Source: a candidate division WOR-3 bacterium (GTDB lineage: Bacteria > Hydrothermota > Tepidihabitantia > Tepidihabitantales > Tepidihabitantaceae). From it: 64,000 bases of DNA. The stretch spans positions 22,255-86,254 of the forward strand of contig CBFGIT010000008.1 in the NCBI GenBank assembly GCA_965648905.1, written 5' to 3'. The notes beneath the pieces were generated by a model. That model did not search any database. It was not told the origin of the DNA and saw only the letters and a program-made list of their open reading frames with translations. Positions 36,615-56,219 of this stretch are shown here, in pieces. Position 1 is the stretch's first letter. The number at the start of each line of letters is the position of its first letter. Position numbers and translations under genes: made by a program.

Positions 36615-36800
36615 GATGTTCTACCCTATGCCGAGGGCGTCTGTGTGAACGAGAGCAAGACCAAGATAGGCTACGAAATCAGCTTCAACCGCTACTTCTA
36701 CAAACCCCAGCCGCTTCGGACGCTCGAACAAATCCGCGCCGACATCCTGGCGTTGGAGAAGGAAACGGAAGGACTGCTGGACGAGATAGTCGGAAAGTGA
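36615..36800 (+). pseudogene. C-terminal remnant of a type I restriction-modification methyltransferase (HsdM-like) gene
   Basis: Only the last ~60 codons of ORF 36447..36800 look like protein: DVLPYAEGVCVNESKTKIGYEISFNRYFYKPQPLRTLEQIRADILALEKETEGLLDEIVGK, which matches the HsdM C-terminal NRYFY...LEEI pattern. The upstream part of the ORF is low-complexity non-protein-like. Confidence 0.45.
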
Positions 36801-37497
36801 TGAATGATGAGTGATGAATTATGAGCGGTGAAAGATGAGTACTCAACGCGGACAGAAGCTGACAGAAAGGACGCGGGAGTTCGCGCTACGGGTGATTCGC
36901 CTGTGCTCGGAACTGCCCAAATCTACGGTTGCTCAAGTTATCGGCAAGCAGATGCTCCGGGCCGGGACATCGGTTGGCGCGCACTATCGCGAAGCCGTGC
37001 GCAGTCGGTCTGACGCAGAGTTTGTCAGCAAGCTCGAAGGCGCCCTGCAGGAAGCAGAGGAGACGCGCTACTGGCTTGAACTTCTGACAGCCGAGCGACT
37101 GGGTCCGCAGTCGGAACTTGCGGCCCTAGCGTCCGAGATTGATGAACTTGCCGCCATGCTCGTCGCCAGCGTCAAAACCGTCAAGGCACGAACGAAGCGA
37201 TAAACTCGGAATGATAAGCGATGAATTCAGCCGACAGAGAACGCGGCGGCCTGTAGGTTCGCTTCTTGCTCATCCTCAATCATTCCCTGCTCCTCGGATG
37301 ACCCGCCGCAACCGATGAATACCCCGCGTTCGTCACAAGAAATTCATCGCCTGTCTTCTCGCATCGTATGAGCACTCAGCACCCATCATTCATCACTCCG
37401 CGCTCTCCTTCAGCCTCCCCCACTCAGAACTCATCACTCATTACTCATCGTTCTCCTTCTTCCCCCACTCATAATTCATCATTCATAACTCATCACT
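36796..37497. repeat. Imperfect ~30-bp inverted repeats (27/30) flanking four-helix-bundle gene copy 2, plus additional degenerate TCATCACTCAT-type copies at 37385-37450
   Basis: Left arm 36796-36825 AGTGATGAATGATGAGTGATGAATTATGAG. Right arm 37468-37497 CTCATAATTCATCATTCATAACTCATCACT. Confidence 0.6.
36835..37203 (+). CDS. Four-helix-bundle protein (TIGR02436 / 23S rRNA intervening-sequence protein family), copy 2
   Basis: GKQMLRAGTSVGAHYREAVRSRSDAEFVSKLEGALQEAEETRYWLELL. Clear paralog of 14653..15021. Confidence 0.8.
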   Translation: MSTQRGQKLTERTREFALRVIRLCSELPKSTVAQVIGKQMLRAGTSVGAHYREAVRSRSDAEFVSKLEGALQEAEETRYWLELLTAERLGPQSELAALASEIDELAAMLVASVKTVKARTKR

Positions 37498-38047
37498 CTC
37501 CTCTCCGCCCCTACCCTACCTACAAGCCCTCCGGCATGCCGTGGCTGGCTGGCTGACACCGTGTTCGACCTGACCTACAACAAAGAAGTCGCGTAGCGAC
37601 GCCCGGTCTCAGTTCGACTCGGTCAGCCTCTCGCTAACAGCAACTGAGAGCTCCTTTGCCCCTGAACAGGACCGTAGGCCGTGCTATGAGCAATGCCTGC
37701 AGTCGTGCTTCTCGAAGTACCGGCTTGAGTGCTTGGCAGCGTGACACCAGAAGTCACTTATGCTGCACTGGCTGGTGTCACATTGCCTGTACTCGGAGCA
37801 GTTCAGGACCAGATGACGACTGCTTGGACGGTGGCGATCACGCTGGACGTGCCATTAGGATTGCCGAGACGATGGAATCGAAAGATGACACCGGCCGTTC
37901 CGAATGGAATGACATTGGGAATGCTCTAGGGAACCGCCTGCCGGACGTCCCCAATCCTCCAGTTCAGCAGTCACTTCTTTCGCATAACCGATTGACCGCT
38001 AAACCGTTAGCCGCAATCAGCCGTATGTCGCCCAGTTAGACGACTTG

Positions 38048-38353
38048 TCAGCTTGAGCTGCCGGTGCCGGTTGCGGCCTCGACTTTGTGCTTCATCGACG
38101 AAGGCTTGTCGCGCCGGTCGTCGACCTTCATCACCGTATAGATGCGCTTGCAGCCGAGACGCTCGTATTCGTCGTGAATTGAGCGGATTGCCTGAAGTAC
38201 CGGTTCCCAGTCGCCCTGGATGCAGGTTCCCATCGAATTGACCTGGTACTCAAGGCCCGAGGCCCTGACTATCTCGACTGCCCGGCGCACAAACCGGCTG
38301 ACTGATGTCTCGCCGGTGCCGGTGGGGACAACGCTGATTTCAAAGATGGGCAT
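38048..38353 (-). CDS. MTH1187/YkoF-family protein (thiamine-binding/DUF77-like)
   Basis: 101 aa. ISVVPTGTGETSVSRFV...SGLEYQVNSMGTCIQGDWEPVLQAI pattern. Confidence 0.75.
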   Translation of the reverse strand: MPIFEISVVPTGTGETSVSRFVRRAVEIVRASGLEYQVNSMGTCIQGDWEPVLQAIRSIHDEYERLGCKRIYTVMKVDDRRDKPSSMKHKVEAATGTGSSS

Positions 38354-38362
38354 CGGTCTTCC

Positions 38363-38881
38363 TCACATGAATCGCTCGAACCGGTCTTTCGAGACTTTGC
38401 AAATTGGGCATTTGTCCGGCGGCGCGTCTCGGGCACAGAGATAGCCGCAGACCTTACACCGCCAGACCGGCAAAGGCAGAGTGCGGGGAGCCTGAGTCTG
38501 TGCCGTTCCTTCCAGCCGTGAGAACCCTTCACGCATGTACTTCTCCGGCCGGCGTTCCGGGATTGACTTGTGCGGCTTGCGGCCGGCAATCCAGTCTTCG
38601 CTGACGTAGAGTGCGCAGTAGCACGCGCCAAACTCGGCCAAATCCGCATCCCGGTAGTCGCACGGACAGATGATATCCAGGTCTTTTTCCCGCGCGCCGA
38701 ACGGCAGCCGGCACGGACATGCCCAGTAGCCGTGGCGCTGCTGGTTTTCAAGCAGACCCTGAATCAGACGCAGGGTGAACTCTTTGTCCGGGTTGAGCCG
38801 GTAACCGCCTGCCTCTGCCTCGCGCTTCAGCCGCTCGTAGACCTGAACAACCTCAGCCGAAAACTGCTCAGACGCACTCAT
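38363..38881 (-). CDS. Ferredoxin:thioredoxin reductase catalytic-subunit-like protein fused to a C-terminal rubredoxin-like zinc ribbon
   Basis: FTR catalytic CPC..CPC..CHC-type cluster (WACPCRLPF...ICPCDYRD...GACYCALYV). C-terminal [10 protein letters not shown]...CPICKV. Confidence 0.7.
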
Positions 38882-39114
38882 AGCTCAAGCAGTTCGCGGA
38901 TCCGTTCCTCGTCAAACCCGGCCACAACCTGGTCGTCAATCTTGATTGTTGGATACGAGCCGCGCGGGTTCAGCTCACGCACCCGACCGGCCATCTGCTG
39001 GCGCTCGTCCCCGGTGCACTGGTCAACGTAGATGTAGTCGTAGGCGACGCTGTTCGAATCGAGCAGTTCTTTGGTCCGGCGGCACCAGCCGCAGGTTGAC
39101 AGGGCATAGAGCAT
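38878..39114 (-). CDS. Glutaredoxin-like thioredoxin-fold protein (CxxC)
   Basis: [18 protein letters not shown]...[17 protein letters not shown]. Start set at the internal Met; the ORF track extends it to 39201. Confidence 0.65.
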
Positions 39115-39149
39115 CACGCGGTGTTTGTTGTTTGTCCCGGACTGATGAA

Positions 39150-39347
39150 CTATCGGCACAATTCTTCTCCTTCTGATTGGGGCTGGCTTTGACCGAAACA
39201 CTCAGGGCAGTCTGTCTCGCCCTTGGGCAATGGCTTGCCGCAGATTGCGCAGGTGATGACTGCAACCTGGCAGGGGGTGCAGACTGAATCGTCCTCGCCC
39301 GGCAGTCCGTCGCAGTAGGGACAGCGGCATTCAGCGTTGGACTTCAC
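39150..39347 (-). CDS. Small Cys-rich zinc-ribbon protein (65 aa)
   Basis: CRCPYCDG...CTPCQVAVITCAICGKPLPKGETDCPEC. Four CxxC pairs. Sits between iscU and the glutaredoxin-like gene. Confidence 0.4.
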   Translation of the reverse strand: MKSNAECRCPYCDGLPGEDDSVCTPCQVAVITCAICGKPLPKGETDCPECFGQSQPQSEGEELCR

Positions 39348-39721
39348 TTCGCCTCCTTGGCTTTGGCCCGGTAGTTTTCGATTGCCCGGTGCAGGGCATC
39401 TGCTCCAAGATTAGAGCAGTGGAGCTTATTGGGTGGCAGGCCGCCGAGCTCCTGGGCAACGTCGGCATTGGTTATCTTCATCGCCTCATCCAGGGTCTTG
39501 CCGATCGCCATCTCGCTAACCATCGAGGAGACCGCAATCGCCGCTCCGCACCCGAACGTCTTGAACTTCACGTCGGTGAGCACATTGTCTTTGACCGTGA
39601 TGTAGAAGGTCATCATGTCACCGCAGACCGGGTTGCCGATTTCCCCGACTCCGTCTGCGTGCTCGATTTCGCCGACATTGCGCGGGTTGCGGAAATGCTC
39701 CATCACTTTCTCAGAATACAC
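39344..39721 (-). CDS. iscU: Fe-S cluster assembly scaffold IscU/NifU-N
   Basis: GNPVCGDMM, KFKTFGCGAAIA and LPPNKLHCS give the three conserved Cys plus His. Confidence 0.9.
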   Translation of the reverse strand: MYSEKVMEHFRNPRNVGEIEHADGVGEIGNPVCGDMMTFYITVKDNVLTDVKFKTFGCGAAIAVSSMVSEMAIGKTLDEAMKITNADVAQELGGLPPNKLHCSNLGADALHRAIENYRAKAKEAK

Positions 39722-40965
39722 TAGCTCTCCTCGCTTGTGTGCTCGTCTTCTTCACAGACCTCACCCGGCCTGGTCCGGTAAGGGTCTTCGCCCCGCTCGA
39801 ACCGGGCATAGAGCGGCGACATCCGACGCAGCCGTTCAACAATCGGCGGCAGCTTTTCCAGGAAGTAGTCAACGTCGCTGTCGGTCGAATCCTTGCCCAA
39901 GGTCAGGACCAGCGAAGACTGGGCCAGAGCATGGGGCAGTCCCATTGCCAGGAGCACATGTGAAGCCTTCAGATTGCGGGCTGTGCAGGATGAACCCGAG
40001 GCGGCCCTAATGCCCTCGTCGTCGAGGAACAGAAGCATCGCCTCGCCCTCAACGAACTCAACGCACATGCTGACATGGCCGGGCAGGCGATGGTCAGGAC
40101 AACCGGTCATGACTACGTGTTTCAGCCGCTCAGGCAGCTCGGTCCGGATGCGACGACTCAACCGGGCGAGAAGTCTTGACCATTCATCAACATGGTTGCG
40201 GCAGAACTCGGCCGCGACCCCGAACCCGGCAATCGCGGCCACATTCTCGGTCCCGGCCCGCCGGTTCCGCTCCTGGAACCCACCGTCAATGAGCGGCCGA
40301 ATCGTCACCCCTTTGCGCAGATACAGGGCCGCCGCGCCGCGCGGCCCGTAGACCGACTGCGCGGCAAATGAGTAGGCATCAATCCCGAGCTCAGCAACGT
40401 CAACCGGAATCCGGCCGACCGCAGCACAGCCATCAGAGTGAAACAATACCTTGTGCGCACAGCAGGTTCGGGTCAGCTCCATCAGATTCTGAATCGTGCC
40501 GACCTCGTTGTTGGCGTGCATGACCGAAATCAGCACTGTGTCGGGTCGAACCGCGGCCTTAAGCTGGTCAGGTTGCACCGAACCGTTCCGGTCTACCGGC
40601 ACTTCGGTTACCTCAAATCCCAGTCGTCTGAGCGCGCGCGCCGGCTCCATGACAGACGCGTGTTCGATGGCCGAAACGACGATGTGCTTTCCCTTATCCA
40701 TCCGGGCCAGGGCAAGGCCTTTGACCGCAAGGTTGTTGCTTTCGGAGCCGGACGCAGTGAAGACGATTTCCTCGGGCCGGGCATTGACAAGGGCCGCAAC
40801 CTGGGCTCGTGCGGTCTCAAGAGCCTGCCTCGGCCGCTCGCCGCCCCGGTGCAGACTTGAAGGGTTGCCGTACTCTTCGGTGAGAAACTCCTGCATTGCC
40901 TCCCTTGCCTGCTCAAGTACCGGTGCTGCTGCCGCGTGGTCAAAGTTGATGTCGGGCATACTCAT
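39721..40965 (-). CDS. iscS: IscS/NifS-like class V aminotransferase-fold protein lacking the PLP-binding lysine (HK replaced by QS)
   Basis: NifS-family N-terminus and active-site loop GSSCTARNL are present. At the PLP site the sequence is IDAYSFAAQSVYGPRGAAALYLRK, where E. coli IscS has [24 protein letters not shown]. Confidence 0.8.
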   Translation of the reverse strand: MSMPDINFDHAAAAPVLEQAREAMQEFLTEEYGNPSSLHRGGERPRQALETARAQVAALVNARPEEIVFTASGSESNNLAVKGLALARMDKGKHIVVSAIEHASVMEPARALRRLGFEVTEVPVDRNGSVQPDQLKAAVRPDTVLISVMHANNEVGTIQNLMELTRTCCAHKVLFHSDGCAAVGRIPVDVAELGIDAYSFAAQSVYGPRGAAALYLRKGVTIRPLIDGGFQERNRRAGTENVAAIAGFGVAAEFCRNHVDEWSRLLARLSRRIRTELPERLKHVVMTGCPDHRLPGHVSMCVEFVEGEAMLLFLDDEGIRAASGSSCTARNLKASHVLLAMGLPHALAQSSLVLTLGKDSTDSDVDYFLEKLPPIVERLRRMSPLYARFERGEDPYRTRPGEVCEEDEHTSEES

Positions 40966-41070
40966 ATAGACGAACTGCGGGTCGGTTTCGGTTCGAAGCG
41001 CCTAGAGTCTAGTATGCCGCAAGCAGTTGTCAAACGAACATCACGCCCGAAACAGGGACGACAACACCGG

Positions 41071-41098
41071 TTGACAGCACTGACTTGCCCGGTATGAT
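41071..41098 (+). promoter_or_regulatory. Sigma70-type promoter TTGACA-16-TATGAT immediately upstream of thrS (predicts leaderless or near-leaderless mRNA)
   Basis: TTGACA 41071-41076, TATGAT 41093-41098, GTG start at 41105 (7 nt after the -10). Confidence 0.45.
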
Positions 41099-48973: not shown

Positions 48974-49047
48974 TACCCCGCGCCAGAATTGAACTGGCAA
49001 CCCACGGATTAAGAATCCGTTGCTCTACCAAGTTGAGCTAGCGGGGC
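48974..49047 (-). tRNA. tRNA-Lys (anticodon CTT)
   Basis: Hand-folded 74-nt cloverleaf: acceptor GCCCCGC/GCGGGGT, anticodon loop TTCTTAA, T-loop TTCAATT. No encoded CCA. Confidence 0.8.
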
Positions 49048-49067
49048 ACAAGTGCAGTACCACGCGA

Positions 49068-49141
49068 CGCGCCCGGCGCGACTCGAACGCGCAACCTGCG
49101 GGTTCGAAGCCCGACGCTCTGTCCAGTTGAGCTACGGGCGC
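49068..49141 (-). tRNA. tRNA-Arg (anticodon TCG)
   Basis: 74-nt cloverleaf: acceptor GCGCCCG/CGGGCGC, anticodon loop CTTCGAA, T-arm GCGCG-TTCGAGT-CGCGC. One U-C mismatch at the base of the anticodon stem. Confidence 0.75.
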
Positions 49142-49235
49142 TGCTAGAGACGCCTCCGGCCGGTCGCCGGACGTGAAGTGTAACGAAATCCGGCCAGGAT
49201 GCAACCATCGCCGGCGCTGACGAACACAACACGAG

Positions 49236-49310
49236 GGTGAGTGAGGGGACTTGAACCCCCAACATCCTGAGCCACAGTCAGGTACTCTAACCAGTTGAGC
49301 TACACTCACC
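49236..49310 (-). tRNA. tRNA-His (anticodon GTG) with encoded G-1
   Basis: 75 nt: extra 5' G pairing with C73, acceptor GTGAGTG/CACTCAC, anticodon loop CTGTGGC. Confidence 0.85.
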
Positions 49311-51634: not shown

Positions 51635-53182
51635 CTAGCCGGTCCGATAGACCGAATCGAGCACGGTTCCGTCCACCCACTTGACGACGGCCACAACCTG
51701 GTCAGACAGCTTCGGTCGCGCCGGCCGACCGCACATCCGCTCAATCTCAGCCTTCATCTCCCCGATGTCTCTTATCGGCAACCCCGATCCTTTGATCGCA
51801 TCGCGCAGGTCGGTCCGTCGCGGGTTGATAGCGATGCCCAGCTCGGTGACGACCACGTCGACCAGTTCGCCCGGCCCGACCAACGTGGTGACCCGGTCTA
51901 CGATTATCGGCAGCCGGTCACGCATGGCCGGAACCGCAAGGATAACGCACTTGGCGAAAAGACAGTTCTGCCAGCCGCCGATGCCATGCCGCAGCCTGCC
52001 GTCAGAATGAGTCACCACGTTGGCGTTGAACTCGGTATCGACCTCGGTCGCCGACAGCACAGCAACGTCGAGCAGGTTTATGTAGTTACCCTTGGCATGG
52101 TAGTTGTAGCTCACGAGCGGTGAAATCGACACGTGCCCCCGGTTGACCGCAATCGAGCGCACCGCCTCAAGGTCGAACGCCTGGCCGTCCACCAGCGCTG
52201 GGGCCAGTCCCTGTTCGAGCATCCGGACCAGGTAACGGGTTGTGCCGCCATGTATCCATCCGGCCTTGACACCTTCAGCCTTCATCATGTCGGCAAGGTA
52301 CACGGCAAACGCCAGTGAGATACCACCTGCTCCGCCCTGAAAACTGAACCCGTCCTTCAAGATTCCCGACTCCCTGATGAATCGGGCGACTAGCTCAGCA
52401 ATGTAGAGCCGGTCCGGCGAGCGGGTGACTTCGGTCGTACCGGACATGATTTTCGCCGGGTTGCCGATTGAGTCCTGTTGAACCACAAAGTCGACGTGGG
52501 TTCCGTTGAGCTGAAATGGAATGCAAGGAAACGGAACCAGGTTGTTGGTGACAATCACCGTGCGGTCCGCGTACATCGTGTCTGCGACCGCATAGCCGAG
52601 TACACCGCAGGCAGAGTCACCCTTGATACCGTTGGCATTACCGAACTTGTCTGCCGCCGGCGCGGCCAGGACCGCGATGTCGATGTGAATCTCGCCGTCC
52701 TGAATCGCCTGGGCCCGGCCACCGTGCGACCGCAGAACCCCGAGCCCGCGCATCCGACCCTGGGTGCAGTAATCGCCGAGCGGGCCGTTGAGGCTGCCTT
52801 CGATGTGATGAATGACACCGGCGTCAAGGTGCTTCATGATCGGAGCATGGCATGGAAACGCCGCGGACGGGTACCAGACCAAATCCTTCAGTCCCATCTC
52901 GGCGCAGATGTCAAAGAGCTGCAAAGGCAGGGTGTCGCCGTCGCGGAAGTGATGGTGCGTGGAAATGCACATGCCGTCACGGATGCCGCACTTCTCAAGC
53001 GCAGTGCGCAAGTCCGGCACGGTCTTGTCACCGTTGTCCGGGTAGTCGATACAGGTCGGAATCTGGGGACAGGCCTTGCGCCCCGAAGGCCGATGCTTGC
53101 CCACGCCGGCAAACGGAACCGCGGGTCTGCCATTGACTTCAGTCGGGACCTTTCGGCCCAGCGCGTTCTCAACGAGCTTCAT
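51635..53182 (-). CDS. citF: Citrate lyase alpha subunit-like (citrate CoA-transferase, CitF family)
   Basis: 515 aa CitF-family protein with the two CoA-transferase-like halves. Confidence 0.8.
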   Translation of the reverse strand: MKLVENALGRKVPTEVNGRPAVPFAGVGKHRPSGRKACPQIPTCIDYPDNGDKTVPDLRTALEKCGIRDGMCISTHHHFRDGDTLPLQLFDICAEMGLKDLVWYPSAAFPCHAPIMKHLDAGVIHHIEGSLNGPLGDYCTQGRMRGLGVLRSHGGRAQAIQDGEIHIDIAVLAAPAADKFGNANGIKGDSACGVLGYAVADTMYADRTVIVTNNLVPFPCIPFQLNGTHVDFVVQQDSIGNPAKIMSGTTEVTRSPDRLYIAELVARFIRESGILKDGFSFQGGAGGISLAFAVYLADMMKAEGVKAGWIHGGTTRYLVRMLEQGLAPALVDGQAFDLEAVRSIAVNRGHVSISPLVSYNYHAKGNYINLLDVAVLSATEVDTEFNANVVTHSDGRLRHGIGGWQNCLFAKCVILAVPAMRDRLPIIVDRVTTLVGPGELVDVVVTELGIAINPRRTDLRDAIKGSGLPIRDIGEMKAEIERMCGRPARPKLSDQVVAVVKWVDGTVLDSVYRTG

Positions 53183-54375
53183 GCACTCTCCTTGTCCCAG
53201 CCCGAAACCAGCCGTCCCAGCTTCTCGGCCAGTTCGACCGTGCGCAGGCAGCGCTTCACCACTGGTGCGTCAACCATCTTCGAGCCGACCGCAACCGCGC
53301 CATGACCCTGAGCCCGAGCCTTGCGATAAGCCAGCACCACTTTCCTTGCCTGCTCAACCTCGTCGACCGAAGGCGTGAATGCCTCATTCACCACCGGTAT
53401 CTGACGCGGGTGGACGCAGCCCTTGCCTTCAAACCCGAACTCGCGGGCAACGCGGCAACTGGCCGCCAGTCCTTCGAGGTCATCGACGTTACCGTAGACC
53501 GTATCTATCGGCTGGACCCCGGCCGCCCGGGCTGCATTCACGACCTGGGACCGGGCCCAGACCGTCTCAAGCCCGGCTTGGGTTTTACTTGCGCCGGTGT
53601 CGGCCAGGTAGTCTTCCATTCCCCAGGTCAGGGCTGCGACCCGTTCCGATGCACGGGCAATCCTAGCCGCTTCGAACATACCCTGCGCGGTCTCGATAAT
53701 CGGCATCAACCACACCTCAGTTGAGGCCTGCTTCAATCGCCGGTCCAACTCCTTGATATCGTCCTCAACCTCGCACTTGGGCACAAGTATCAGGTTCGCA
53801 CCCGCCCTGACCAGCGTATCCAGCTCATCCAGGCCGCGCGGCAACTGGTTGACGCGCACCATCCGTTCACAGTCTCCAAAGTCCACGACCCGCAGGGCAT
53901 TGCGGACAAGAACGAGCGCCGCGTCTTTCTCTTCAGGTGGCACCGAATCCTCCAGGTCAAGAATCACCGCGTCTGCGCCGTGGATTCGCGCGTTGACCAT
54001 GAACCGTGCCTCATTGCCTGGCAGATAGAGCCGCGACCGGCGCCAGTGGTCGCGGGCCGAAGGCCGGGCAAAGGTCGGGCCAGCCTCAGGCAGCCATTCC
54101 TTGACTGCCTGGCCCGGCTTTGCCCGCCGAACTGCAGCTTCAAGCCGGGCCATGATAACAAACGGCAGCGCGCCTCTGTCCTCCACCTGCACCTTCGCGT
54201 GCTTGACGCCAAAGAACTCAAGCCCTTCCCTCGCCAGTGCTCTAATACTCTCCCCGTACATCGCCTCGACTTTGCTCTTCACGTCAAGCTGAATGCCGCC
54301 CGACTTCTCCAGCTCGACCGAGACCCAGACGTCGCTTCGGACCCCTTCGCCGCGCAGTCCTGCCTGGCCGGTCAT
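53179..54375 (-). CDS. Fused citrate-lyase acyl-carrier (CitD-like, N-terminal ~95 aa) and citryl-CoA/citramalyl-CoA lyase beta subunit (CitE, HpcH/HpaI aldolase fold)
   Basis: N-terminus aligns to CitD (DRGALPFVIMARLEAAVRRA vs E. coli DKGALDCILRARLEA). Remainder is CitE-like (RSRLYLPGN...DLED). ATGA overlap with the citF-like gene. Confidence 0.75.
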   Translation of the reverse strand: MTGQAGLRGEGVRSDVWVSVELEKSGGIQLDVKSKVEAMYGESIRALAREGLEFFGVKHAKVQVEDRGALPFVIMARLEAAVRRAKPGQAVKEWLPEAGPTFARPSARDHWRRSRLYLPGNEARFMVNARIHGADAVILDLEDSVPPEEKDAALVLVRNALRVVDFGDCERMVRVNQLPRGLDELDTLVRAGANLILVPKCEVEDDIKELDRRLKQASTEVWLMPIIETAQGMFEAARIARASERVAALTWGMEDYLADTGASKTQAGLETVWARSQVVNAARAAGVQPIDTVYGNVDDLEGLAASCRVAREFGFEGKGCVHPRQIPVVNEAFTPSVDEVEQARKVVLAYRKARAQGHGAVAVGSKMVDAPVVKRCLRTVELAEKLGRLVSGWDKESA

Positions 54376-54376
54376 G

Positions 54377-54871
54377 CTAGGCTCCTGCCTTGCGCGCGGC
54401 CAGCTTGCGCCGCGTGAACTCCAGGAGTCCGCCTGCCTCGCAGATCGCGAGAATCTCCTGAGGCAGCTTCGGGAAGGTATAGGTCTTGTCTCCCACCTTT
54501 ATTGTCCCTGCGGCCGCATCCAGCTCAACCGCCATTCCCGGCTCGTACGCATCGACCGCGTCCGGAGCCTCGACCAGAAGCAACCCCTGGTTGATGGCGG
54601 CCCGGTAGAAGATGCGGGCAAAACTCCGGGCAACAATTGCCTGCACACCCACGGCCTTGAGTCCGACAACCGGCTGCTCCCGCGACGACCCGCATCCGAA
54701 GTTCTTGCCTGCCATCACGATGTCGCCCGGCTGCACCGCCTTGGCAAACTCCGGGTCAAGGTCCTCAAGCAGATGCGGCTTAATCTCCTCCGGCTTCGAG
54801 CAGGTATAGGTGTACTTGCCCGGAAAGAGCATGTCGGTATTGATATCGTCACCATACTTCCAGACTCTCAT
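54377..54871 (-). CDS. leuD: Aconitase-family hydro-lyase small subunit (LeuD/HACN-small, archaeal type)
   Basis: 164 aa. GDDINTDMLFPGKY...GKNFGCGSSREQ is the LeuD swivel-domain signature. Confidence 0.85.
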   Translation of the reverse strand: MRVWKYGDDINTDMLFPGKYTYTCSKPEEIKPHLLEDLDPEFAKAVQPGDIVMAGKNFGCGSSREQPVVGLKAVGVQAIVARSFARIFYRAAINQGLLLVEAPDAVDAYEPGMAVELDAAAGTIKVGDKTYTFPKLPQEILAICEAGGLLEFTRRKLAARKAGA

Positions 54872-54956
54872 ACTTCACCTCCACAGGCAATGCCGGTCGG
54901 CTCGGTCAGCTCTGGCTTCTGCATTCTGGCTTCTGGATTCTGCCTACGTCCTGCCA

Positions 54957-56219
54957 TTACCCCACCTTTCTCGGGTCGGTTATCATCCCGGTGATGGCCG
55001 AAGCGGCCACGGTCGCGGGCGAGGCAAGATAAATCTCTGCATCCTTGCAGCCCATCCGGCCCTTGAAGTTGCGGTTCGAGGTCGAAATGCACCTTTCGCC
55101 TGGAGCCAGACACCCCTGATGCGCACCAAGACACGGCCCGCACCCGGGCGGCAGGAGCACTGCGCCGGCGGCCACGAGAGTCTGGATGTCACCAGCGTCA
55201 AGTGATCGCTCCAGCTCGGCCCGCGACGCGGGCAGGACCAGGAGCCGCGTGCGCGGGTGAACCTTCTTGCCCCGAAGGACACGTGCGGCCAAAGCAAGGT
55301 CTGATGCCCGGCCATTCGTGCAGGTGCCGACTAAGCACTGCTGCACCTCGGTTCCGGCGAGTTCAGTCACCGGCTTGTACTTGTCCACCTTGTGGGGCAG
55401 AGCCACAGCCGGCACAATGCTGTCCAGGTCGAACCTCAGTTCCTGCCGGTAATTCGCACCCTCGTCTGCCCACTCTGCGCTCCACGAACTTTCAGCCACA
55501 CCAATGGACTGAAGATACCCCTTGGTCACTTCATCCACCGGGAACACAGCATTCTTCGCCCCCATCTCCACGCCCATATTGGCAATCACGAACCGGTCGT
55601 CAACCGACAACGAGCCCAGGTCGCCCCAGTACTCGACCGAGCAGTAGTCTGCCCCGTCTGCGCCGACCTTGCCGACGATGGTCAGCACCAGGTCCTTGGC
55701 GGTCACCATGTCGCCCAATTTGCCCCGCAGCACAATCCTGATTGACTCCGGCACCTTGAACCAAGTCTCGCCGGTCATAAGCAAGGCCGCAGCCTCGGTC
55801 CGGTCAATCCCGGTGGCAAGAGCGTTCACCGCGCCGTACGAACACGTGTGCGAGTCTGACCCGACCGCCAGCATCCCAGGCAGTACCAGCCCCTTCTCAA
55901 CCATCACTTGATGACACACTCCGGTTCCGACGTCAAAGAAGTGCTTGATCCCGTACCTCTGCACAAACTCGCGTATCTTCTTGTGGCTTGTTGCGGTCTT
56001 CTCATCTGATGCCGGTATCACATGGTCGAGCACGACTACCGGCTGATTCGGGTCGGCCACGCCGTACTCAGCAAGGTCCTTGCTGACCTTGTCGGTAATG
56101 GCCGCAGCATTGTCGTGCATCAGAAGCCGGTCCGGCTTACAGGTCACGAGCTCGCCAGCCCGGGCCTGCTTCCTGCCGCCCTTGCGGGCGAGCACTTTCT
56201 CGGCAAATGTCATCGGCAT
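54957..56219 (-). CDS. leuC: Aconitase-family hydro-lyase large subunit (LeuC/HACN-large, archaeal type)
   Basis: 420 aa. MTFAEKVLARK...LLMHDNAAAI. Cys ligands in GTCTNGRASD and LLPPGCGPCLG. Confidence 0.9.
   Translation of the reverse strand: MPMTFAEKVLARKGGRKQARAGELVTCKPDRLLMHDNAAAITDKVSKDLAEYGVADPNQPVVVLDHVIPASDEKTATSHKKIREFVQRYGIKHFFDVGTGVCHQVMVEKGLVLPGMLAVGSDSHTCSYGAVNALATGIDRTEAAALLMTGETWFKVPESIRIVLRGKLGDMVTAKDLVLTIVGKVGADGADYCSVEYWGDLGSLSVDDRFVIANMGVEMGAKNAVFPVDEVTKGYLQSIGVAESSWSAEWADEGANYRQELRFDLDSIVPAVALPHKVDKYKPVTELAGTEVQQCLVGTCTNGRASDLALAARVLRGKKVHPRTRLLVLPASRAELERSLDAGDIQTLVAAGAVLLPPGCGPCLGAHQGCLAPGERCISTSNRNFKGRMGCKDAEIYLASPATVAASAITGMITDPRKVG

Follow-up and report, generated by a model that had tools for sequence, protein, structure and literature searches.

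A conserved WOR-3 operon that joins a lysine-less IscS with IscU and a thiol reductase suggests an alternative sulfur supply for Fe-S clusters

The 64-kb window, that is, the whole stretch of WOR-3 DNA that was analysed, carries on its minus strand a six-gene operon encoding, in this order, an IscS/NifS-fold protein (hereafter WOR-3 IscS), the scaffold IscU, a zinc ribbon protein, a methanoredoxin-like glutaredoxin (Grx), a ferredoxin:disulfide reductase (FDR) and an MTH1187-like protein (Table 1). A sequence-only reading of the same DNA had proposed this composition; the members are confirmed by Pfam and NCBIfam matches and recur as a conserved unit, with the refinement that Grx most likely starts at the GTG at 39159 (GGAG lies 8 nt upstream) rather than at 39201. 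The GTG start of IscU overlaps the stop codon of WOR-3 IscS (TAGTG), the start of the zinc ribbon overlaps the IscU stop (GTGA), and the ATG of FDR overlaps the Grx stop (ATGA). These overlapping stops and starts support coupling of the IscS, IscU, ribbon, Grx and FDR genes. A promoter consensus scan (10 of 12 matches) gave two sites against 0.9 expected, a putative one upstream of WOR-3 IscS and a divergent one for thrS. No riboswitch or other RNA family was found near the operon with Rfam, the only matches being three tRNAs at 48974-49309. No second class-V aminotransferase was found by tblastn within the window, and the sulfur carriers TusA and DsrE were found neither in the window nor in any WOR-3-type operon.

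Table 1. Positions of the operon genes, key codons and promoter-like sites in the window
Feature	Position	Strand	Remarks
thrS promoter-like site	41071-41098	+	divergent from the promoter-like site of WOR-3 IscS
Promoter-like site TTGACA-16 nt-TAGACT	41006..41033	-	~40 nt upstream of the WOR-3 IscS start; putative, consensus match
WOR-3 IscS	39721..40965	-	414 aa, IscS/NifS-fold; second ATG at 40959 may be the start
Gln203-Ser204 codons CAG TCG	40354..40359	-	His205-Lys206 PLP-binding position, E. coli numbering
Cys327 codon TGC	39985..39987	-	mobile-loop Cys; E. coli IscS Cys328, A. fulgidus Cys321
Val353 codon	39907..39909	-	position of the alpha-carboxylate-binding Arg354 in canonical IscS
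IscU scaffold	39344..39721	-	125 aa; three Cys, Asp and His ligands all present
Double zinc ribbon, Cys-rich	39150..39347	-	65 aa; CxCPYC...CxPC...CxxC...CxxC
Methanoredoxin-like dithiol glutaredoxin (Grx)	38878..39159	-	93 aa; invariant STCGWC motif
FDR, ferredoxin:disulfide reductase	38363..38881	-	FTR catalytic domain CPC...CPC...CYC and C-terminal rubredoxin CxxC...CxxC
MTH1187-family (PF01910) protein	38048..38353	-	101 aa; Cys44 in MGTC and Cys68 in LGCK

WOR-3 IscS has the complete NifS/IscS fold and the active-site cysteine loop, as the sequence-only reading had stated: its match to PF00266 is full-length (E 3.6e-71), with residues 6-367 aligned on profile positions 1-370 of 371, and the loop motif GSSCTARNL is present. 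The AF2 model is of high confidence (pLDDT 94, pTM 0.92) except at loop residues 328-330, and the low confidence at the Cys loop is consistent with flexibility. The best PDB fold match to the model is 4HVK, the A. fulgidus IscS (rmsd 1.2 A, TM 0.97), and IscS and NFS1 structures follow with TM 0.87-0.92. Every NCBIfam equivalog cut-off is missed, with 436 bits against 530.75 for NifS (TIGR03402) and 344 bits against 643 for IscS (TIGR02006).

The lysine that binds PLP in canonical proteins is absent. The DNA quoted earlier for the replacement of His-Lys by Gln-Ser was located at 40380-40343 on the minus strand, where Gln203 is encoded by CAG (40359-40357) and Ser204 by TCG (40356-40354). In the HMMER alignment with the best solved homologue, 9wep, the segment sfaaQSvygprg pairs gaplessly with sfsaHKmygpkg, and profile and MAFFT alignments agree in placing Ser204 in the lysine column. 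A neighbouring lysine shifted into the PLP site would account for the change, but no compensating lysine occurs in any PLP-contact segment of WOR-3 IscS. The 120 closest homologues (60-100% identity; those named belong to WOR-3/Caldifarciminota) all lack the PLP lysine as well, with Ser in 119 and Ala in one, and their His205 column holds mainly Met (67) or Gln (48).

Further residues of the pocket have changed along with the lysine. By E. coli numbering, Gln183, Ser203 and His205 are replaced in WOR-3 IscS by Ala, Ala and Gln, respectively; Gln183 is Ala in 119 of the 120 closest homologues, where Ser203 and His205 are also replaced, and the Arg354 column holds Val, Met or Leu in all 120, compared with Arg in 129 of 150 representatives of the whole family. 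The contacts kept in WOR-3 IscS are His102, Asp178, Ser74 and Thr239, and half of the PLP contacts (His104, Asp180, Ser/Thr76 and Thr243 in E. coli numbering) are invariant in the clade, with His104, Asp180 and Cys328 each conserved in 120/120. The loop Cys is likewise kept in all 150 family representatives. The residues that remodel the pocket (Ala181, Ala202, Ser204, Gly179) are themselves conserved to 95% or more; the pocket is thus more ordered than a disused one needs to be, and another ligand could bind there. Intermediates of the P0124 type keep His-Lys but have lost Gln183 and Arg354. Lys333, six residues past the loop Cys, is the sole clade-invariant lysine that is mostly missing from canonical proteins, where Glu or Asp usually takes its place, and an acidic tail at the C-terminus (GEDPY...) is likewise conserved in the WOR-3 form. 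The dN/dS of WOR-3 IscS is 0.105 against an 87%-identical orthologue. Five catalytic residues are therefore gone from a protein whose fold is intact, which is under purifying selection and whose operon is conserved. By analogy with A. fulgidus IscS2, which has the same substitution pattern and is reported to be inactive, WOR-3 IscS would be expected to lack both PLP and desulfurase activity.

IscU matches PF01592 (E 1.8e-49) and scores above the TIGR03419 cut-off (203.6 against 187.9 bits), and its dN/dS of 0.059 marks the strongest constraint in the operon. The zinc ribbon matches DZR_2 and DZR weakly, both below the Pfam cut-off, and has a dN/dS of 0.47; in other operons it is found whole on the C-terminus of IscU (L004), reduced to half (L002, L087) or absent (L086). 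Grx matches PF00462 (E 1.6e-11), among solved structures it comes closest to 3NZN (E 1.8e-20) and 5CAX (E 5.4e-17), and it also matches the N-terminal domain of a natural Grx-FTRc fusion, 7PWE (E 3.4e-15). FDR matches PF02943 and PF21349 and aligns across its full length with PDB 4TPU (E 1.4e-61); every Cys is invariant in alignment A3, and dN/dS is 0.147. The MTH1187-like protein matches PF01910 (E 1.2e-31, 108.9 bits against 24.9) and TIGR00106 (90.7 against a cut-off of 54.7). Its Cys44 and Cys68 are both present in all 18 aligned WOR-3-type copies and missing from MTH1187, MJ1052, YBL001c, 1YQH, TM0486 and the more distant operon L109.

The six-gene operon was seen at L001, L002/3, L004, L085, L086 and L087 and at the WOR-3-type loci among L088-L099; it is conserved at every WOR-3-type locus examined, and the flanking genes are unrelated. 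WOR-3 genomes with the operon include GCA_026418295.1 and GCA_965649225.1. At L001 it lies beside oxygen-detoxification genes (rubrerythrin, peroxiredoxin, desulfoferrodoxin, ferritin and a flavodiiron protein), and at L119 a peroxiredoxin gene is situated upstream. In a metagenome scan centred on FDR, the lysine was missing from every full-length IscS encoded up to 6 kb upstream, and the His-Lys position took four forms (QS/MS, QA/QT, ND and HT). A Grx homologue lies directly upstream (~240 nt) of FDR in nearly all loci with enough upstream DNA, although in roughly 21 of the 34 such Grx-FDR pairs IscSU is not close by. This makes Grx-FDR a general redox unit, which may serve general thiol homeostasis here. 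IscU proteins encoded beside lysine-less IscS mostly share 80-87% identity with that of the window (range 46-87%), those beside canonical IscS 54-70%; no ligand change distinguishes the two sets, which differ in minor signature residues only. In a genome-contig search with WOR-3 IscS, which covered sister clades, the best match listed was 55% identical and no WOR-3 sequence was among the matches listed. Other lysine-less IscS-IscU pairs adjoin genes for the persulfide carriers TusA and DsrE in several lineages, a linkage for which no published account was found in a literature search. With neighbours of these two kinds, TusA/DsrE and a disulfide reductase driven by ferredoxin, the chemistry may involve persulfides or disulfides no less than free sulfide, the source that the sequence-only reading had suggested.

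On balance we favour the view that WOR-3 IscS is a conserved, inactive and PLP-free descendant of a cysteine desulfurase, retained as the partner of IscU, with Cys327 serving as a ligand or relay, sulfur arriving independently of PLP and electrons coming from Grx-FDR. It would still act as the dimeric partner of the scaffold in a predicted complex, in which Cys327 is probably the fourth ligand of the nascent IscU cluster, a sulfur acceptor or relay, or both. Sulfur could arrive as free sulfide, polysulfide or a protein persulfide. In canonical ISC systems, ferredoxin performs the reductive step. Here the methanoredoxin-like dithiol protein and FDR would most likely carry ferredoxin electrons into the assembly complex, and the couple could reduce a persulfide on Cys327 or IscU, a polysulfide or a heterodisulfide to sulfide and free thiols. 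The Cys-rich ribbon, which some operons carry as a fusion with IscU, would be an accessory part, as would the MTH1187-like protein with its two cysteines.

A broader and much more tentative proposal is that lysine-less IscS-IscU pairs represent a distinct, PLP-independent mode of loading IscU with sulfur in anaerobic Bacteria and Archaea; no other version would be as complete and self-contained as the WOR-3 operon. Sulfur would reach the retained Cys of IscS as persulfide or polysulfide, delivered by TusA/DsrE in groups such as Archaeoglobi, Bathyarchaeia and Dehalococcoidia. Its source in WOR-3 might be the MTH1187-like protein with its two cysteines, or the environment itself. The ferredoxin-driven methanoredoxin/FDR couple would then reduce this sulfur to the sulfide of the cluster.

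Other explanations of the operon have to be weighed. It may, with a probability that is low but appreciable, be mainly a device for thiol-redox or oxidative-stress repair, in which Grx-FDR keeps cysteines reduced once oxygen has entered and WOR-3 IscS-IscU rebuilds damaged clusters with sulfur supplied by a canonical SufS or NifS encoded elsewhere. The prevalence of Grx-FDR pairs without IscSU and the neighbouring oxygen-detoxification and peroxiredoxin genes at L001 and L119 fit this explanation, as does M. acetivorans, which has an active IscS2 in addition to a lysine-less IscS1 (PMC7585200). However, the flanking genes vary in every other context examined, and the window holds no second class-V enzyme in its 64 kb. 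Stress repair also leaves unexplained why the lysine is lost in every full-length IscS beside Grx-FDR, and why TusA/DsrE lie beside other lysine-less pairs.

It is rather improbable that WOR-3 IscS is still an enzyme, binding PLP or a related cofactor either without a covalent bond or by way of a different lysine, for example Lys333, and carrying out desulfuration or some other reaction in the pocket. The invariance of His104, Asp180, Ser/Thr76 and Thr243 would agree with this, and the pocket changes are fixed, not drifting (Ala181 and Ser204 each in 119/120), while Lys333 is invariant in the clade against the usual Glu or Asp of canonical proteins. Yet the A. fulgidus protein retains the same His, Asp and Thr and is reported to be inactive. 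The residues that contact the carboxylate (Arg354), O3' (Gln183) and the phosphate (Ser203 and His205) have all been lost together, and we know of no fold-type I PLP enzyme in which the Schiff-base lysine comes from the Cys loop.

We consider it very unlikely that WOR-3 IscS is a sulfur-relay adaptor for thio-cofactor synthesis or tRNA thiolation, of the TusA type, instead of a component of Fe-S assembly. In several lineages TusA or DsrE does adjoin a lysine-less IscS; TusA and IscS of E. coli bind each other, and the corresponding structure, PDB 3LVJ, is among the fold matches. Against this, the neighbour that never varies and is translationally coupled is an IscU with all its cluster ligands (dN/dS 0.059), and neither carrier occurs in the window or in the WOR-3-type operons. 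A sequencing or assembly error, or a decaying pseudogene, was rejected as the origin of the lysine loss with near certainty. Nothing was found in its favour, and against it stand the same loss in 120 independent homologues, intact ORFs, a dN/dS of 0.105 and a confident AF2 model.

How strict anaerobes without a working desulfurase supply sulfur to Fe-S clusters is a question explicitly raised in the papers on the SMS and MIS systems (PMC13066941, PMC12192291). In the case of SMS, a mevalonate-dependent E. coli strain without isc and suf has served for complementation (PMC12192291). Until now the IscS of A. fulgidus, the sole characterised lysine-less IscS, has passed for an oddity. Loss of the lysine is in fact widespread and under strong purifying selection, occurs in several forms that fall into separate clades of a rough tree, and is repeatedly linked with TusA/DsrE persulfide carriers or with a ferredoxin-driven disulfide reductase. 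A conserved operon of lysine-less IscS, IscU and a thiol reductase suggests that Fe-S clusters can obtain their sulfur by an alternative route, and the annotation "cysteine desulfurase" in WOR-3, Dehalococcoidia, Archaeoglobi, Bathyarchaeia and other groups is probably wrong about activity. These results provide a set of proteins for expression tests of a PLP-independent sulfur route to IscU. They also suggest what FDR and methanoredoxin, two proteins with poorly defined substrates, may serve as a physiological client.

Among known systems, A. fulgidus IscS2 (AF_0564; PDB 4HVK, 4EB5/4EB7 with IscU and 4R5F D199K) resembles WOR-3 IscS most closely, with the same fold (rmsd 1.2-1.5 A) at 44-45% identity. 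The statement in the sequence-only reading that this protein naturally has Asp in place of the lysine is borne out by the alignment and by the literature (PMC7585200). It is PLP-free, and it is reported to have no desulfurase activity and to provide a Cys ligand to the [2Fe-2S] cluster of IscU (PMC7585200; PMC13066941). Common to both proteins are the replacement of Gln183 by Ala, the loss of His205 (Asn in A. fulgidus) and of Lys206 (Asp), a hydrophobic residue at Arg354 (Leu) and the retention of His104, Asp180 and the loop Cys; at 11 key positions WOR-3 IscS reads SHNDAAQSTCV and the A. fulgidus protein THNDASNDSCL. Both also adjoin IscU, which in A. fulgidus is encoded immediately downstream. 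They differ in that the His-Lys position is Asn-Asp in A. fulgidus, with Asp in 119 of 120 members of the archaeal lysine-less clade, and Gln/Met-Ser in the WOR-3 form, to which the acidic C-terminal tail and the invariant Lys333 are likewise peculiar. The neighbours differ as well: in A. fulgidus DsrE lies directly upstream of IscS2 and TusA/DsrE ~6 kb away, while F. placidus and a Bathyarchaeota genome have TusA, the lysine-less IscS and IscU in a row, all without Grx-FDR. The two proteins had been suggested to belong to one class. The co-substitutions and the closest structure uphold the likeness, whereas a rough NJ tree with the key columns left out (backbone branches 0.002-0.007 long, without support values) places them in separate, purely lysine-less clades, so that the likeness may be convergent instead of reflecting shared membership.

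The FDR of M. acetivorans (4TPU) is ~60% identical to that of the operon and has the same two domains and all cysteines, and the operon Grx shares the STCxWC active site of the methanoredoxin-type proteins 3NZN and 5CAX. FDR reportedly reduces methanoredoxin, a result ascribed to Prakash and colleagues in 2018. Reduction of a thioredoxin-type protein by FDR has been reported (PMC6262447). No report was found that ties FDR or methanoredoxin to IscS-IscU, to which both are translationally coupled in the present operon.

With the canonical type I desulfurases (E. coli IscS 1P3W, human NFS1 and 9wep), WOR-3 IscS shares the fold, a dimer-type architecture, the mobile Cys loop and the IscU partner, but Lys206, His205, Ser203, Gln183 and Arg354 are all replaced. 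The MIS system (MisS-MisU) of Garcia et al. 2022, as portrayed in PMC13066941 and PMC12192291, is similar in that an IscS-like and an IscU-like protein form a pair in an anaerobe, in an operon without HscBA, IscA or an ISC ferredoxin. MIS is described as including a working cysteine desulfurase, and the WOR-3 operon differs from it in that the desulfurase residues are, to judge from the sequence, gone from IscS and four more genes are fixed to the pair.

The lysine-less IscS/NifS-fold protein encoded in the window (IscS*) aligns over the whole profile of the class-V aminotransferase family (PF00266), and its nearest solved relatives, in the order 9wep (E 1e-120), Archaeoglobus fulgidus IscS2 (4eb5/4r5f, E 6e-104), NFS1, and Escherichia coli IscS, are cysteine desulfurases. 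The sequence-only reading had proposed that the PLP-binding His-Lys pair is replaced by Gln-Ser and that the active-site loop GSSCTARNL keeps its cysteine, and both proposals are borne out. Because the HMMER alignment with 9wep, which pairs 'sfaaQSvygprg' with 'sfsaHKmygpkg', is free of gaps, Gln203-Ser204 occupy the HK position; the loop cysteine is Cys327. Eleven catalytic positions were mapped on IscS* in E. coli numbering. Ser/Thr76, His104, Asn155, Asp180, Thr243, and Cys328 are retained, and the replacements are Gln183 to Ala, Ser203 to Ala, His205 to Gln, Lys206 to Ser, and Arg354, the substrate-carboxylate residue, to Val. Every NCBIfam cysteine-desulfurase equivalog cut-off exceeds the score of IscS* (e.g., 530.75 for NifS vs. 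436 bits). The AlphaFold2 model is confident (pLDDT 94, pTM 0.92), with disorder limited to the loop that carries the Cys and to the C-terminal tail, and among solved structures PLP-free IscS of A. fulgidus (4HVK; rmsd 1.2 Å, TM 0.97) matches it best. A. fulgidus IscS2 reportedly has no desulfurase activity, and its loop cysteine ligates the [2Fe-2S] cluster of IscU (PMC7585200; PMC13066941). By analogy, IscS* most likely partners IscU without being catalytic. An acidic C-terminal extension (SPLYARF.KGEDPY..K.G..CEE..H) is specific to the clade, canonical proteins ending earlier; its Cys is present in five of seven aligned operons.

The lysine-less form of IscS* is a conserved state rather than damage. 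Its 120 closest matches in the database share 60-100% identity with it; several bear the name 'candidate division WOR-3 bacterium', a phylum whose current NCBI taxonomy name is Caldifarciminota. All 120 lack the lysine, with Ser in that column in 119; the Gln183 column is Ala in 119, the Arg354 column holds Val, Met, or Leu in every case, and His104, Asp180, and the loop Cys are retained throughout. Compared with the 87%-identical orthologue of locus L085, dN/dS is 0.105 for IscS*, and the corresponding values are 0.059 for IscU, 0.147 for the ferredoxin:disulfide reductase (FDR), and 0.47 for the zinc ribbon encoded with it. A 'displaced' lysine could only be Lys333, six residues past the loop cysteine. 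This residue of the Cys loop is invariant in 120/120 close homologues, and at its position most canonical IscS/NifS proteins have Glu or Asp, so IscS* may retain some enzymatic function or have acquired a new one. Half of its PLP contacts are still invariant in the clade, and conservation is also high in the remodelled pocket.

Loss of the lysine extends to the wider family. Among the 150 nearest cluster representatives at 50% identity, every protein has the loop Cys and 23 do not have the lysine. The substitutes in these 23 include Gln, Arg, Ser, Thr, Gly, Asn, and Asp, and most of them are also without Gln183 and Arg354. The earlier statement that an A. fulgidus IscS carries Asp at this position is correct for IscS2, whose sequence, taken from a PDB alignment, has Ala for Gln183, Asn for His205, Asp for Lys206, and Leu for Arg354; its 120 closest relatives, from Archaeoglobi, Hadarchaeia, and Bathyarchaeia, have Asp there in 119 cases. 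A neighbour-joining tree was calculated with the key columns left out; its backbone has very short branches, none with a support value. In this tree IscS* falls within a clade of 27 leaves, all lysine-less, that also includes proteins from genomes of Dehalococcoidia, Desulfomonilaceae, Thermodesulfobacteriota, and Actinomycetota, and A. fulgidus IscS2 falls in a separate lysine-less clade near canonical archaeal proteins. P0124, a near relative in the representative library, still has His-Lys, yet Gln183 (Ala) and Arg354 (Leu) are already gone; it may be an intermediate en route to lysine loss.

All the operon members that had been proposed around IscS* were identified: IscU, the zinc ribbon, a methanoredoxin-like CxxC glutaredoxin (Grx), FDR (FTRc-rubredoxin), and a clear MTH1187-family member as the last product. 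The six genes are tightly packed on the (-) strand; stop and start codons overlap between IscS* and IscU (TAGTG), IscU and the ribbon (GTGA), and Grx and FDR (ATGA), and 9 nt separate FDR from the MTH1187-like gene. IscU retains the full set of cluster ligands, and its TIGR03419 score exceeds the cut-off. Grx (STCGWC) most resembles 3NZN and 5CAX, both of the methanoredoxin type; a further match is to the N-terminal domain of the solved protein 7PWE (196 aa), in which a glutaredoxin-like domain is naturally fused to an FTR catalytic domain. This fusion matches Grx and then FDR in order, which is fusion-type evidence that both work together. The gene order is conserved in L001, L002/L003, L004, L085, L086, and L087, where the flanking genes are unrelated, and in the WOR-3-type loci among L088-L099 from an FDR-centred metagenome scan. 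Across these operons the zinc ribbon is a separate gene, a whole or half fusion to the IscU C-terminus, or absent (one). The MTH1187-like protein has Cys44 ('MGTC') and Cys68 ('LGCK'), which are invariant in 18 aligned WOR-3-type copies; none of the five solved members of the family has them, nor does the copy in L109, a more distant operon. The family's conserved MGT.xEG motif includes one of these two cysteines. The metagenome contig L091 (3472-4119) carries this gene twice in inverted orientation, probably an assembly artefact.

Features of the window discussed in the text
Feature	Position	Strand	Remarks
PF05635 gene and repeats	36792-37511		
Inverted repeats	36792-36835, 37458-37501		44 nt, imperfect
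23S rRNA intervening-sequence (IVS) protein gene	36835-37203	(+)	PF05635; four-helix-bundle
IVS-protein gene to operon end	37204-38047		~850 nt
Hairpin	37735-37787		16-nt arms
MTH1187-like protein	38048-38353	(-)	
Start codon of Grx	39159	(-)	GTG, most likely; GGAG ahead
IscS*	39721-40965	(-)	414 aa; PF00266 end to end, E 3.6e-71
C-terminal extension of IscS*	39724-39806	(-)	clade-specific
Lys333 codon of IscS*	39967-39969	(-)	
Gln203-Ser204 codons	40359-40354	(-)	CAG TCG; PLP-binding His-Lys position
Promoter-like site (predicted)	41033-41006	(-)	upstream of IscS*
Three tandem tRNA genes	48974-49309	(-)	
Citrate lyase alpha subunit (CitF), CitE-like lyase, aconitase-family protein	51635-56219	(-)	CitE-like lyase has a fused N-terminal acyl-carrier (MdcD/CitD-like) domain

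Beyond the operon, the PF05635 gene is bracketed by the inverted repeats, which are 84% complementary, and the repeats consist of tandem units, a 14-nt AGTGATGAATGATG (three copies) and one of ~45 nt (three copies); together they look like a cassette outside any rRNA gene. The adjoining stretch up to the operon end has no convincing ORF and no Rfam match, and contains the AGTGATGAATGATG/~45-nt tandem repeats and the hairpin.

In the FDR-centred scan, Grx lies directly upstream of FDR in nearly all loci with enough upstream DNA, and an IscS homologue is nearby in ~13 of 34 loci with at least 2.5 kb upstream. The full-length IscS proteins near FDR all lack the lysine and take four forms: Gln/Met-Ser (the WOR-3 type), Gln-Ala and Gln-Thr (L109, L146), Asn-Asp (L119; 54% identity to A. 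fulgidus IscS2), and His-Thr (L101, L127). A canonical IscS was seen near Grx-FDR just once, in L028, at a distance of 4.5 kb. The His-Thr proteins, from metagenome contigs, constitute a third lysine-less type (His104 to Asp, Gln183 to His, Arg354 retained) and lie near IscU, TusA, and a Grx-FDR pair. Grx-FDR is a general unit usually found without IscSU, and the L001 operon adjoins oxygen-defence genes; a general redox or repair role for the operon, with sulfur from a desulfurase encoded elsewhere, is a live alternative, although no class-V enzyme besides IscS* was found within the 64-kb window.

TusA or DsrE persulfide carriers often adjoin lysine-less IscS-IscU pairs outside WOR-3, as in the bacterial and metagenome loci L005, L006, L007, L013, L119, L101, and L127. 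In A. fulgidus, DsrE is immediately upstream of IscS2, and TusA, DsrE, and TusA lie ~6 kb upstream; Ferroglobus placidus and a Bathyarchaeota genome have the order TusA-IscS*-IscU. Among the matches listed for an IscS-centred genome sample, such neighbours occur in 4/9 lysine-less vs. 2/69 canonical loci (Fisher p = 0.0012, a value that ignores shared ancestry and truncated contigs). One of these two canonical loci, L079 (1668-3549) of a Sedimentisphaerales MAG, has a lysine-bearing IscS with DsrE upstream and TusA downstream. IscU proteins beside lysine-less IscS are mostly 80-87% identical to that of the window (range 46-87%), and those beside canonical IscS 54-70%, again among the matches listed.

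Lysine-less IscS has been noted in A. fulgidus and as IscS1 of Methanosarcina acetivorans (PMC7585200). In the literature outside Garcia et al. (2022), Prakash et al. (2018), and Balsera et al. (2013), we found no description of a large bacterial lysine-less clade with fixed substitutions, of the six-gene operon, or of lysine-less IscS being repeatedly coupled to Grx-FDR and TusA/DsrE. FDR of the operon shares ~60% identity with M. acetivorans FDR (4TPU) along its entire length, with all cysteines conserved. Whereas other lysine-less pairs often have TusA/DsrE, neither carrier was found anywhere in the window or among the WOR-3-type operons examined, and these operons encode the two-Cys MTH1187-like protein. 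The linkage of IscS* to a ferredoxin-driven dithiol reductase (Grx-FDR) and, elsewhere, of lysine-less IscS to persulfide carriers suggests that sulfur would reach the predicted IscS*-IscU complex without PLP. A persulfide, polysulfide, or heterodisulfide there would then be the target of a reductive step, one that ferredoxin carries out in canonical ISC systems.
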